Shown here in pieces: positions 15,948-63,896 of a stretch of DNA of 64,000 bases. Positions within the stretch are counted from its first letter, which is position 1; the number at the start of each line of letters is the position of its first letter. The stretch is taken from NCBI GenBank assembly GCA_964016885.1, contig OZ024743.1, positions 373,178,001 to 373,242,000 of the forward strand, written 5' to 3'. The notes under the pieces were generated by a model. It searched no databases. It was not told where the DNA came from and saw nothing but the letters and a program-made list of their open reading frames with translations. Source of the stretch: Eledone cirrhosa. Lineage: Eukaryota. The position numbers and the translations under genes are program-made.

Positions 15948-16580
15948 TATACATATATATAAATATACATACATACATATATAGTTGTTTGATCAATGGG
16001 GGAGCTTCCTCTTGAAATTGACGTACAAGTGGTTGAACATTCCCCAAGCACCTTTAATGTACTTCTCAGAGAGATTCATTGAGACACAGTAACAATTCTG
16101 ACCCTTTGAATTACATGTACAATTACATTTGAATTAGCAGCTAAGTGGACTGAAGCAATGTGAAATAAGGTTTATTACTCAATGATACAATGTACTGCCT
16201 TGAATTGTACTCACTTTAGAACTGTTAGTCAAACAGCCTAACCATCAATTCGTGCTCTTTCACACACACACATTATGTATATCTATATCTATATATATAT
16301 AAATATATATGAAAAATTTGGAACCCCAACAGCTGAGCTCCAGCTGTTTCAACAGCTAGATCTGAACTGATGTGCTGGAACTAGCTGTTGAAACGGCTGG
16401 AGCTCAGCCGTCGAGGTCCCAAATTTTTCATATTACCCACTCTACTACCCCAAGTATTCAGTACTCTGGTGAGAAATGGTCTAACTGGTTTTTACTGTTT
16501 CCATTCTTATATATATGTATATATATAAAATAGTGAAGAATAATATGGTTGACAGTACAAAACAAGGATATTTATTTACA

Positions 16581-16685
16581 GTCTTACAATTGTTTCAATG
16601 ATAGAAATGTCTATAAATTGCTAAATACTGGAGAAAGTATAATTCAATTTACAATACATCTAAGTTCCATTATATCATCAGAGAC
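16581..16685 (-). ncRNA. Type I hammerhead ribozyme motif with long stem II insert
   Basis: Minus strand: gtct CTGATGA (about 78 nt) GAAA caattg TA agac. Palindromic stem III. A 3' half of the same family lies at 20005-20020 (+). Confidence 0.7.
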
Positions 16686-17227
16686 AAATAAGAAATATAA
16701 AATATATGCGTAACGGTAAACTATATATATGTATATATATATATATAAAAAATACAGACACACTCATTATATCGCAAGGATGACCCTGTGATAAGCAGGC
16801 GAAACTCCAGAATAACAACACTCACTATTTACCCTCAATAAAATGAATATTTAAACTCTACTTCAGCATTGAGTACTCTTTCCTCTTGGCTGTCAACTAT
16901 ATAAGGATATATATATATCATCATCATCATCATTGTTCTTATGTCCACTTTTCCATGCTTGCATGGGTTGGACGGGTCCTTCTCAGCACACACATAAATT
17001 TATCTGGTATATGTCTACTAAAACAGTATATTCATATATACTGTTTTATATATACACATATATATCATCATCATCATCAACGTTTAACGTCCGTGTTCCA
17101 CGCTTGCATGGGTTTGGACGGGGGTAGTCCCACTTGAGGCAAGAGTGATTGTCTTGCTCGCATAGGACTGTCTGGCAGGTTTTCTACAGTTGGATGCCCT
17201 TCCTAACACCAACCACATTTACATATA

Positions 17228-17270
<43 letters not shown>

Positions 17271-17462
17271 TTAGGTTTGTTGGTTCACCACTGGATAGAT
17301 GGTCATTCCATATGGTCAATCTCGATGTAATATTATGGAGAGTACTTAACGTAATGCAGCTCACCCGTCTTCGTTTGTGTAGTTGGTGGTGCGAGTACGG
17401 AGTTAATTATTATAATAAAATAACAGGAGGCTGGACTTGTGTAAATCCTTGAAAGGTTTATT

Positions 17463-17520
17463 ATACTATGATCATTTCAATGACCAGGTTCCGTATGAAT
17501 CCGGTGATATCATCAGGTAT
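17463..17520 (-). ncRNA. Type I hammerhead ribozyme motif (left arm of 2-kb fold-back element)
   Basis: Minus strand: atac CTGATGA tatcaccggattcatacggaacctggtcatt GAAA tgatca TA gtat. Confidence 0.8.
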
Positions 17521-19131
17521 TCGAAATATAACAAAGGAATATAACAGATAAAATCCATGGGGCTGAAAATCATAGACAAGACGACGACTGACTATCTAGC
17601 ATCTTCTACTTTAGTCGGTCGCCCTCAAGTGTTGGCTATTCGGTCTACTTATGACCATCTGGTGAGGGGGGGGGGGCGAAAGCTTATAATGTACTAATAC
17701 CTCCCCGTCAAATAGAAAAAAGAAGAAAGAAAGAAAAGTCAGCGTTAAGGTTATGCTACAATCAGGCTAGAAATTGCCGCGAAAAATGTTTTTCCAAAGA
17801 ACCTATATCTTAACAGAGGCATATAGTGGGCGTCTGTATGGTATAATTTTTTTGCTTATTGTTCCTTTTATTTAGGTTTCCACTCGCTTTACTCTCATTA
17901 TGTACTTATCATTGTACTCATTAGTACAGGACACTTGAATATTACTCTCTGTACCCTTATATCTCCCCCTACCCACCAAAGAACCATACTTCTTATAACC
18001 CGGACTAACTGGGGACTTAAATATAGTCTATTTGCGCATTTCATCGGGTTTTACCACTTTCAACCTCACATCACGGGTGTGAATATATAATAATCGTTTG
18101 GTTACACGCGATGATCCGACTGATGTGGCGGCTTTCCCGGCTACGCGCCCGGCGCTCTGGTGCATAAGCCTTCCTTGAGTGCTTGGAAAAATAAATTTCC
18201 CCTTCTTTCGGTAAATGAAATTAATCGGAGCAGCTTGCTTCGCCCCGGAGCCTGCCACGCCACCGGTTTTGACCGCCATATAGTACCTTTAAATTCTAGT
18301 CTTAATCATAACTATTAGGTGTATCATGCCTCCCTCTTCTGGCACGTAAACAAATCCCCCTCCTGTGTGAATTAATAGTATTCGTTTGGTATAGCAATGG
18401 CCCAACGGCAATGGTGGACTTCTCGCCAGCACACTTGAAGCCTAAGACAGTCACATTCCTAGAGTACTCGGAAAAATTAATTTCCATCTCTTTCGCTAGA
18501 TGATATCATTCGGAATGGCTGACACGTGGTTAGGAAGGGCTGGCGGAGTCTGCATTCGTCGCGTGTTATTGACTGCTAAATAAGGGCTTAATCTTTACTC
18601 TATATCCCACCCTGAAAACTTATCAAGAATCTCTATAATACACTTAAACTTTTTCATATTAGACTCTCTGTAAATTCTTTCACTAAATCTCACAACCCAA
18701 ACCTTAAACTTTTTTTAATTTTTTAACTTTTTAATTTTTTTAATTTCATTCTATAACTCTAAACATAAGTTTAACGTTCCAATTTTCTGTTCACACATTA
18801 TACCATACAGACACCCACTATATGCTTCTGTTAAGATATAGGTTCTTTGGAAAAACATTTTTCGCGGCAATTTCTAGCCTGATTGTAGCATGACCTTAAC
18901 GCTGACTTTTCTTCTTTCTTTCTTTCTTTCTTCTTTTTCTCTTTGACGGGGAGGTAGTAGTACATTATAAGCTTTCGCCCCCCCCCCCCCACCAGATGGT
19001 CATAAGTAGACCGAATAGCCAACACTTGAGGGCGACCGACTAAAGTAGAAGATGCTAGATAGTCAGTCATCCTCTTGTCTATGATTTTCAGCCTCATGGA
19101 TTTTATGTTATATTCCTTTGTTATATTTCGA

Positions 19132-19189
19132 ATACCTGATGATATCACCGGATTCATACGGAACCATGTCATTGAAATGATCATAGTAT
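19132..19189 (+). ncRNA. Type I hammerhead ribozyme motif (right arm of 2-kb fold-back element)
   Basis: atac CTGATGA tatcaccggattcatacggaaccatgtcatt GAAA tgatca TA gtat. Confidence 0.78.
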
Positions 19190-19234
19190 AATAAACCTTT
19201 CAAGGATTTACACAAGTTCAGCCTCCTGTTATTT

Positions 19235-19269
<35 letters not shown>

Positions 19270-62111: not shown

Positions 62112-62330
62112 GACATTTGCTTAAGATTTGACACTAGCTCAAGACTCGACACTAGCTTAAGACTCGACACTCGCTCAAGATTTGATACTTGCTCAAGATT
62201 TGACACTTGTTCAGGATTTGACACTTGCTCAAGATTTGATGTTTGCTCAAGATTTGCCACTAGCTCATGATTTGACGCTTGCTCAAGATTTGACACTCGC
62301 TCAAAATTTGATACGAGCTCAAGACTCGAC
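62112..62330. repeat. 18-bp minisatellite, about 12 copies
   Basis: Unit gctcaagatttgacactt. Confidence 0.9.
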
Positions 62331-62860
62331 AGAGTGGGATTGAGTGTAGGACCTCATGAGTACAATGCAAACTTCTTAACCACTCATCCATACTTGCACT
62401 TACTCTCTCTCTCTCTCTCCTAATTATGCATTGAATCTCTAATACTCTATCTATATCCTTATCTCTCTTCCTCCATCTGCTTCTCAATCATACTCTCTAT
62501 CTCACTTTCTCTCTATTCCTGTCTCTTAATTATTTAATCACCCTCTCACTGTTGTTCACTATTTCTCTATCTCCCACTTTACTTATACCTGTTAACTTTC
62601 TTCTTCTCTCTTTTTCTTAGACCTCCCTCTCTCTCTCAATTATTCTCTCTCTTGCTTACTCCCACTCTCCCACATTCTCTCTCACTCTCTCTCTCCCACT
62701 TTCTCTTTCATTCTTTCTCTCTCTTGCTTACTTCCTCTCCTCCACTTTCTCTCTCACTATCTCTCTCTTGGTTGCTTACTCTCTCTCTCTCGTTTACCCT
62801 CTCTCCCATTCTCTCTCTTGCTTACTCCCTCTCTCTCACTTTCTCTCTCTCTTGCAACCA

Positions 62861-62906
<46 letters not shown>

Positions 62907-63464
62907 TTCTCTCTTACTCATACCCCCCCCCCCCCACCAGTTGCTCTTAACCCCCTATTAAGTAGACATTTTTTTTTATTTAACAAATCGAAATTCAGAC
63001 ATCAAACAAAATTACGATCAATATGAAGAGTTTAACAAACAATGTAGTTTGAACTAGGCAAGACCAATTCAGAAGCAAACCATACATAAACACACACATG
63101 CACACACTTATACAGACACACACACACATGCACACACTTATACAGGTACACACTTACACAGACACACACACATGCGGGCACTTATACAGACACACACACA
63201 CACATGCACATACTTATACAGGCACACACATAATGGTAAACAGTCAGTTTATTCTGGAACCAGAAGATATTCATACATACATACATACATGCATACATAC
63301 ATACATATGTGCGTACGTACGTATTTACATATATATGTACATACATACAAGCAGGCAGAAAGCTAGATAGATACACACACACACACTCACATATATTTTT
63401 ATATATATATATATATATATACACGATATTAACAAATGGAAACTATATTTATAAAACCATATTT

Positions 63465-63527
63465 ATTTCATTATATATATTTCAAGGACACCAAGTTAAA
63501 TTATGGTGTGCTTTCATCAGATAAAAT
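63465..63527 (-). ncRNA. Type I hammerhead ribozyme motif (left arm)
   Basis: Minus strand: attttat CTGATGA aagcacacca..tggtgtcctt GAAA tatata TA atgaaat. Confidence 0.85.
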
Positions 63528-63653
63528 ATAATATAGAGCAGTTTTATAAATAAATATTGACATACCCTTAAAGAATGCAACCATTACTGTTGGAAGCTCC
63601 TGGATAGGGATAAGGGTATGTCAATATTTATTTATAAAACTGCTCTATATTAT

Positions 63654-63716
63654 ATTTTATCTGATGAAAGCACACCATAATTTAACTTGGTGTCCTTGAA
63701 ATATGTATAATGAAAT
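63654..63716 (+). ncRNA. Type I hammerhead ribozyme motif (right arm)
   Basis: attttat CTGATGA aagcacaccataatttaacttggtgtcctt GAAA tatgta TA atgaaat. Confidence 0.85.
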
Positions 63717-63844
63717 AAATATGGTTTTATAAATATAGTTTCCACTTGTTGATATCGTATTTTTACTCCAATTATTTGTTGAGTGCTTTATATCAGTTAT
63801 AAAAATATTTGCTTGTTGTATCCCAACAATTTAAATAGATCTTT

Positions 63845-63896
<52 letters not shown>

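Follow-up and report, generated by a model that had tools for sequence, protein, structure and literature searches.

We analysed a 64,000-nucleotide stretch of Eledone cirrhosa DNA (assembly GCA_964016885.1, contig OZ024743.1, positions 373,178,001 to 373,242,000; the window) that contains fold-back elements of seven families, labelled A to G (Table 1). The families have two fixed 3' ends, a proximal, tail-less end (P) and a distal end that closes a tail (T). In families A and D, insertions with two ends almost always combine one P with one T, in inverted orientation, around a turn that differs from copy to copy. To judge by their motif signature, these two families are 5'-truncated 3' fragments of autonomous Hydra-clade Penelope-like elements (PLEs). 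We consider it probable, from the sequences, that in each fold-back the two strands of a cut (TA)n target served as primers for the copying of a single RNA, starting from two fixed sites on it.

Fold-back elements in the window and in the genome

An earlier note on this DNA had ascribed to nine elements a common asymmetric layout, with a tail on one arm only and (TA)n on both sides. Self-alignment of the window gave a clear self-inverted match for eight of the nine, with the extra segment on one side only and TA runs outside, except that the element at 28867 is flanked by a CA run instead. The ninth, at 53495, has the same layout, its arms overlapping only briefly. Some bounds had to be moved: the tail of the 24924 element reaches 25341 and not 25287 (about 150-158 nucleotides, nt), the 29431 element starts at 29365 (tail of about 115 nt) and the 55387 element begins at about 55407. 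The copy at 3876 is not a palindrome, as its tail-less arm and a tail-only piece do not overlap.

In a motif scan of the window, hammerhead cores faced outward in four of the seven families (A, C, D and G), in agreement with the claim that both arms point outward. In the window copies of the remaining families (16310 and 53495, 24924, 28867) the ribozyme is reduced to its 3' half; its 5' counterpart was present in genomic copies of families E and F and was not convincingly found among those of family B. The tail-less end lies 21-77 nt past the predicted cut, very near the 20-75 nt first proposed, and the tails measure 66-158 nt. Rfam reported no ribozyme in these elements at gathering score or at E≤1, only microRNA (miRNA)-like and other sub-threshold matches, the weak matches at two elements being to miRNA models. 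When the DNA of the seven arms was compared, a single 15-nt match was found, located at the hammerhead core. Exact 18-27-mers of these families occur 419 to 9169 times in the 3.0-Gb genome and their reversed-pattern controls not at all, indicating that the layout is not due to chance. The fold-back layout is real and genome-wide, and mostly known already.

Two fixed 3' ends

Positions along the families were counted from T. Nearly all 3' ends of family A fell either between -88 and -93 or between 0 and +5, and they cluster at these two sites despite 26 TATA or ATAT motifs within the surrounding 450 nt. P lies at about -88 in family D, at -139 to -146 in C, -158 in E, -111 in G, -75 in B and about -66 in F, with the reservation that BLAST-derived ends overrun the TA flank by a few bases. 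Short-arm ends were not scattered at random but fixed over hundreds of loci in the seven families. Copies that read through these sites have 2-6 nt of TA-like sequence at both P and T, and folding of the P-to-T regions gave no structure common to five families.

Tails often close with an expanded dinucleotide: 10 of 29 family G rows (L292-L317) carry 4-12 CT units, against two in read-through copies, and (CA)n follows the tails of families A and F. Such expansion may come from slippage at initiation or from later microsatellite growth.

Strict pairing of P with T

Whole-element and arm queries favour the query's own turn or rare variants. For this reason pairing was scored in samples ordered by position, the first 30 matches to exact end motifs of families A and D, of which 20 long ones were extended; all were classed by hand. 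P-anchored matches of family A represented 24 distinct insertions, 22 of them ending at P: 19 were P+T, none P+P and three unresolved. Among 30 T-anchored loci of the same family we counted 21 P+T, no T+T, five single, one partial and three unresolved. The 30 T-anchored loci of family D comprised 17 P+T, two T+T, five with an inverted piece lacking a clear end, four single and two complex, while its 29 distinct P-anchored insertions comprised 19 P+T, no P+P, three partial and seven single. Altogether, 76 of 78 two-ended insertions in A and D were P+T (about 73 of 75 once repeats between samples were removed). Independent 50:50 choice of sites predicts one third same-end pairs (binomial p of about 1e-10, computed at n=73-76), and the strict pairing therefore argues against free site choice. 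An apparent P+P signal in the family A list proved to be read-through of an older subfamily that fits the search pattern.

Tail queries, which cannot reveal P+P pairs, returned P+T in 14/29 (C), 13/30 (E), 16/24 (G) and 40/71 (B) cases. In genome position lists, which give positions only, neighbouring opposite-strand matches of C, E and G pointed outward 47 times and inward once. The fold-back had been called the dominant product; this is so for tail-anchored loci of A (21/30) and D (17/30), whereas in the other families it makes up about half or more, depending on the family.

Variable turns and a common source of the arms

The claim that the ends are fixed while the turn varies was borne out by short P+T pairs, whose junctions were distinct in 31/31 cases in A and 24/25 in D, so that most represent fresh inversions. 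The two sides overlapped by 1-8 nt (in one case 51) at 28 of the 56 junctions, met bluntly at 3 and were separated by a spacer of 1-54 nt at 25, the spacers often being small duplications of adjacent sequence.

Arms were compared in 21 (A) and 14 (D) pairs with at least 60 nt of overlap. They differed less within than between insertions (2.4% against 5.6% in A, 4.5% against 9.5% in D), and subfamily variants were common to both arms in 29 of 33 (9 expected) and 46 of 58 cases (16 expected). The arms of one insertion share a source. Query bias explained a T>C variant that at first looked confined to the tail-less arm.

The tail-less arm extended more than 5 nt further 5' than its partner in 37 of the 56 pairs (21/31 in A, 16/25 in D) and the tailed arm in six (five and one), the other 13 being equal; in long copies either end may carry the open reading frame (ORF). 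The 5' ends pile up at -247 to -283 in A and at -252 to -256 in D, which may mark a transcript start or a microhomology hot spot. Forms in which a tail-only piece and an inverted piece do not overlap were found at 3876 and at loci L153, L165, L096, L098 and L116.

At one turn (L038:1235-1258) TAACCC stands four times, against once in the template, and no other family A turn among the loci examined shows this. The repeats suggest reiterative copying by a telomerase-related reverse transcriptase (RT), or telomerase addition.

Families A and D as Hydra-clade PLEs

Long genomic copies of A and D run upstream into ORFs with an RT plus a GIY-YIG domain at the C terminus. RT motifs and a C-terminal YVGST/YFGST...FKxRF domain were found in L152, L153, L156, L168, L330 and L333, although every ORF copy seen was broken or truncated. 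The ORFs contain DKT (as DKTNN), CxCX5C (CNCRNKSNC and CNCPVRTKC), CxxC (CDLC and CNLC) and CxH (CCRH and CLH) and lack CCHH, the signature that section 11 of PMC8557442 gives for the Hydra clade. Eighteen relatives, of 703-931 amino acids (aa), matched at 33-40%; the RWK position reads RWR in A and RWI in D, and RWK in four aligned relatives. Comparison with published Hydra families, made by eye against rows of the supplement of PMC8557442, included Hydra-1_Obim from Octopus bimaculoides, which is listed there.

The same section states that nearly all families of the clade insert in (TA)n and carry hammerheads. Insertions of A and D likewise sit in (TA)n targets, and their hammerheads are of the minimal type with a palindromic stem III (compare PMC4209133, in its description of PLE ribozymes). 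Partial tandems (L152, L156, L158, L333) have units of 4076 and 3485 nt, giving a pseudo-long terminal repeat (pLTR) with a hammerhead. In tandem copies the stretch that leads from the pLTR to the next ORF start begins with the tail; in A this ORF start lies about 47 nt past T. Both families show the inverted 5'-truncated copy with a one-ended tail, here of 88-90 nt.

These results modify two statements of the earlier note. It had spoken of unrelated families; their DNA does differ, yet two of them or more fall within a single PLE clade (RT pieces of A and D are 54% identical), and because of this the shared layout likely reflects shared machinery and not convergence. It had also noted a resemblance to Penelope-like elements, which is more than that: the layout is the inverted pLTR plus tail of PLEs (PMC8557442, Fig. 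2; PMC3846280).

Non-coding families

Family C is a non-coding hammerhead tandem unit of about 2 kb, in which tblastn with the A and D proteins gave no match. In families E and G, non-coding units follow one another in tandem, each with a single type I hammerhead, at a spacing of 587-607 nt (E) and 522-571 nt (G) and in arrays of up to five on one strand. The monomers of 520-590 nt fall outside the 150-450 nt range of non-LTR retrozymes. Genomic copies of E have a hammerhead with the U3-A8 core that the hammerhead survey PMC4209133 describes for some PLE ribozymes, and those of F have a CUGAUGA...GAAAC core with atypical stems. Copies of families B and F are older and of small size, with a turn that lies within the ribozyme or close by, and they seldom run past it; no parent of either was found among the genomic copies examined. 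The automated arm search for F was noisy (21/30 with a match, 16 ending at -59 to -71, some being TA matches only). For B, C and F it is the end layout alone that ties them to PLEs. PLE enzymes, we think, are the likely movers of the non-coding hammerhead units (C, E and G) and of B and F.

Fragments of Hydra-like ORFs that resemble neither A nor D occur in L155, L165, L166 and L324 and are candidate partners for B, C, E, F and G. Other PLE types, with GIY-YIG and CCHH-like motifs, lie beside insertions in L321:1633-2955 and L326, and in L156, L163 and L337.

A proposed model of twin-site priming

The interpretation that we favour would run as follows. After both strands of a (TA)n target are cut, one complementary DNA (cDNA) would start at P, 21-77 nt past the hammerhead cut, and another at T, 66-158 nt 3' of P, both on the same RNA; the tail would be a copy of the RNA between the two sites. 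The 2-6 nt of UA-like sequence at each site could pair with the target. If the T-primed cDNA stopped short, it would leave a tail-only arm and no palindrome, whereas a palindrome would arise if it displaced the P-primed cDNA and recopied the RNA. The growing cDNA ends would be joined by 1-8 nt of microhomology, bluntly or via a short inserted spacer, and such joining would give a different turn in almost every copy. The enzyme may well act as a dimer. A biochemical parallel is provided by the anole Poseidon element PAc (Frangieh et al. 2024), whose enzyme, in the part of the work that describes the reaction (PMC11167929), cuts and extends both strands at AT-rich targets, starts at two sites that bound a tail and is a predicted dimer. 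The earlier proposal that the tail is copied first and the inverted copy second is not supported, since the order is unreadable from the sequence, the tail-less arm is usually the longer on the 5' side, and this arm often bears the ORF, the tail then lying on a short inverted piece.

We further regard it as quite possible, though we would not go so far as to call it likely, that Hydra-clade PLEs integrate by obligate twin-site priming (one ribonucleoprotein, both (TA)n break ends, one fixed start site per strand), and that the same signature on 520-590-nt units is direct genomic evidence for PLE-moved retrozyme-like repeats.

Several observations weigh against this interpretation. T+T pairs exist in D (L384, L386) and in C (L114), and the D list holds one possible P+P pair, at a locus not inspected. 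Single-armed copies make up 13-24% of anchored D and 5/30 of A. Exact counts in D gave 1702 tail ends against 419 P junctions, which we do not take as comparable because the P motif looks subfamily-specific. Tailed arms that halt just past P were seen in 4/31 short A pairs (-85 to -100) and in none of D, where short tailed arms pile up at -32 to -49 instead; blocking of the T-primed cDNA at P thus finds little support. L376 and L377 share one junction and L380 and L386 a spacer, so some fold-backs must have been recopied whole. Gene conversion inside the hairpin, or the use of two transcripts from a single locus, could also have made the arms similar. According to the same part of PMC11167929, the anole enzyme shows no strand preference of the start site and no template-target homology, whereas here a short UA microhomology lies at both sites and the two ends of an insertion nearly always use different ones. 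Pfam searches with five ORF pieces and a PDB search with one gave no matches, and no autonomous partner was found for B, C, E, F or G.

Alternative routes to the fold-back

Priming on two RNAs, or on the 5' and 3' pLTR of one partial-tandem RNA, one per strand, is an unlikely alternative. P would then mark where a source copy gives way to its genomic (UA)n flank, and T would be internal. Some partial tandems do end at P (L152, L158), the pile of 5' ends at about -275 (A) and -255 (D) fits a transcript start in the upstream pLTR, and the variants common to both arms require just one source locus. On the other hand, the ORF-bearing arm can have either end, the strict P+T pairing demands an extra rule if RNAs are picked freely, and the D pile at -255 coincides with an ATATG motif able to pair with the target.

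Self-priming, in which the first cDNA or an antisense RNA (as in PMC3846280) folds back and is copied, appears improbable as an account of the whole. It requires the copied arm to lie within the first one, but each arm mostly holds sequence that its partner lacks: the tail-less arm has extra sequence in 37/56 pairs and the tailed arm has the tail. In most cases, therefore, neither arm is a copy of the other, which excludes self-priming as the main route; the non-overlapping tail-only and inverted forms also speak against it. It may account for a symmetric minority, given that 13/56 pairs turn almost symmetrically and that B and F turn inside natural hairpins.

Little probability also attaches to a few ready-made fold-back masters copied as units, whether retrotransposed whole or moved as DNA transposons resembling miniature inverted-repeat transposable elements (MITEs). 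When the entire 63423 element served as query, its 40 best matches did cover both arms, and L380 and L386 have a complex spacer in common. In unbiased samples, though, 55/56 junctions were distinct, which confines this route to a small minority, and arms run on into ORFs of the RT and endonuclease. The ends are asymmetric and not symmetric terminal repeats, and the turn varies, unlike those of a MITE or fold-back DNA transposon. L380 and L386 belong to the same subfamily and have the same 49-nt spacer in different flanks, one being P+T and the other T+T.

An assembly or long-read chimera artefact can be set aside, even if no independent read spanning an element was recovered and contigs of four sequencing runs yielded neither a piece spanning an element nor an empty (TA)n allele, for arms differ by 2-5%, ends are fixed over hundreds of loci in seven families, and joints between opposite strands, traceable to families B and C but no further than the family, are present in short-read contigs of two samples from the same species.

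Feature list and neighbouring sequence

Table 1. Hammerhead fold-back elements of the window; + and - give the strand, and L numbers are genomic loci.
Family and type	Position	Tail-less arm (P)	Tailed arm and tail (T)	Hammerhead	Remarks
A (63423/55387/3876), Hydra-clade PLE 3' fragment by motif	63423-63848	63423-63607, -	63611-63848, +; tail 63759-63848 (90 nt), +	cores 63520- and 63661+; cuts after 63472- and 63709+	parent ORF in L152, L153, L156
A, older subfamily	55407-55718	+, to about 55718; 15-nt deletion within hammerhead	-, to about 55407	cores 55612- and 55638+	71% to young reference
A, non-overlapping form	3876-4138	3879-4062, -	tail-only piece, 4065 to about 4138-4143, +		pieces joined to each other
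B (16310/53495), short fold-back	16310-16508	ends 21 nt past predicted cut at 16412	tail 16434-16508 (75 nt)	3' half	turn inside hairpin (likely stem II)
B, second subfamily	53497-53672	same end as 16310	tail to about 53672
B, extra fragment, absent from the earlier list	2366-2438		-; tail only		internal deletion; between TA runs
C (17271), non-coding hammerhead unit of about 2 kb	17271-19240	ends at 19240, 55 nt past cut at 19185	tail 17271-17411 (141 nt), -	cores 17516- and 19136+	turn near 18790
D (19503), second Hydra-clade PLE 3' fragment by motif	19503-19902	+; 14-nt deletion	-; tail 19503-19590 (88 nt)	cores 19689- and 19820+	parent ORF in L330, L333
E (24924), retrozyme-like 591-nt tandem unit	24924-25341	-	+, to 25341
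F (28867), short fold-back	28867-29034		tail 28867-28932 (66 nt), -		tail against (CA)n run
G (29431), retrozyme-like 520-570-nt tandem unit	29365-29913		tail 29365-29478, -	29617- and 29783+; long stem II

At many loci, members of these families sit in one another's TA flanks and make up nested clusters (e.g. L037, L291, L309, L362). A young family of long interspersed nuclear elements (LINEs), which we take to be RTE-like, is present at 2781-5928, 22532-24775, 37984-40438 and 47288-50509, with (CAT)n ends in TA runs; it has a 940-aa frame with an endonuclease-like start (50509-47690), and two of its copies (2786-3799 and 4914-5928) flank the 3876 element in opposite orientations. Further inverted repeats lie at 41345-41756 (with 39-nt identical terminal repeats, MITE-like), 44775-44961 (which may be a decayed hammerhead fold-back), 2094-2353 and 9394-9787. 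The window also contains a 73-nt tandem array at 611-1788 and, at 7119-8660 on the plus strand, a 514-aa ORF of tandem C2H2-type zinc fingers (84-nt repeat).

Relation to known systems and significance

The outline of these structures is known. Fig. 2 of PMC8557442 shows a 5'-truncated copy in inverted orientation whose tail, of 30-40 bp, is often one-ended, and PMC3846280, in its account of Penelope copies, also describes an inverted copy with a tail. For Schistosoma, the hammerhead survey PMC4209133 records opposite-strand hammerhead pairs 100-700 bp apart. What is added here is strict pairing, the extents of the arms and the same signature on retrozyme-like units, which we regard as a worthwhile addition. 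No statement of the P+T rule was found in the literature searched, in the parts accessible and with older reviews not covered, and the accessible part of a 2026 octopus repeat annotation (PMC13282606) mentions neither hammerheads nor palindromes.

With the Hydra-clade PLEs of Craig et al. (2021), as described in the consulted parts of PMC8557442, families A and D share the C-terminal GIY-YIG, the motif signature, the pLTR hammerhead, (TA)n targets, the inverted truncated copy and the one-ended tail. They differ in unit length (3.5-4.1 kb with a long 3' untranslated region, against mostly less than 3 kb), in tails of 88-90 against 30-40 nt, in RWR or RWI for RWK, in hammerheads unlike those of Hydra-1_Obim, in thousands of copies and in a strict P+T pairing that is unreported in those parts. 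The PAc start sites lie 111-118 nt inside the ORF, whereas T lies upstream of the ATG here, and the available portion of that paper (PMC11167929) does not account for the inverted copy.

The Penelope elements of Adineta vaga and Drosophila virilis, in the relevant part of PMC3846280, similarly have head-to-head inverted pLTRs, an optional one-sided 3' tail and microhomology junctions. That paper attributes the inversion to self-priming from an antisense template; here the extents of the arms exclude such a route as the general one. Metazoan non-LTR retrozymes (Cervera and de la Pena 2020, PMC7229834) resemble E and G in being non-coding tandems with one type I hammerhead per unit; units of 520-590 nt against 150-450 nt and P+T inverted pairs in (TA)n set E and G apart, the word "inverted" being absent from the accessible text of that paper.

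In LINE-1 twin priming, both target strands prime on one RNA, giving a 5' inversion with microhomology at the turn. There the internal site varies and the parts do not overlap, whereas the fold-backs have a fixed second site and, as a rule, overlapping parts, which produce a palindrome.

The origin of tandem and inverted PLE structures is named as an open question in the part of PMC8557442 that treats them, and the steps after first priming were left untested in the experiments described in the consulted part of PMC11167929. The thousands of young copies in this genome yield counts able to separate models of integration. If obligate twin-site priming is true, it would account for two long-unexplained features of PLEs, the inverted pLTR and the tail on one side. 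PLEs have been proposed as movers of animal retrozymes in PMC7229834, and the presence of the same signature on non-coding hammerhead repeats supports this unproven link. The long hairpins are likely to be filed as MITEs or miRNA precursors and, if transcribed, would be a large source of double-stranded RNA.

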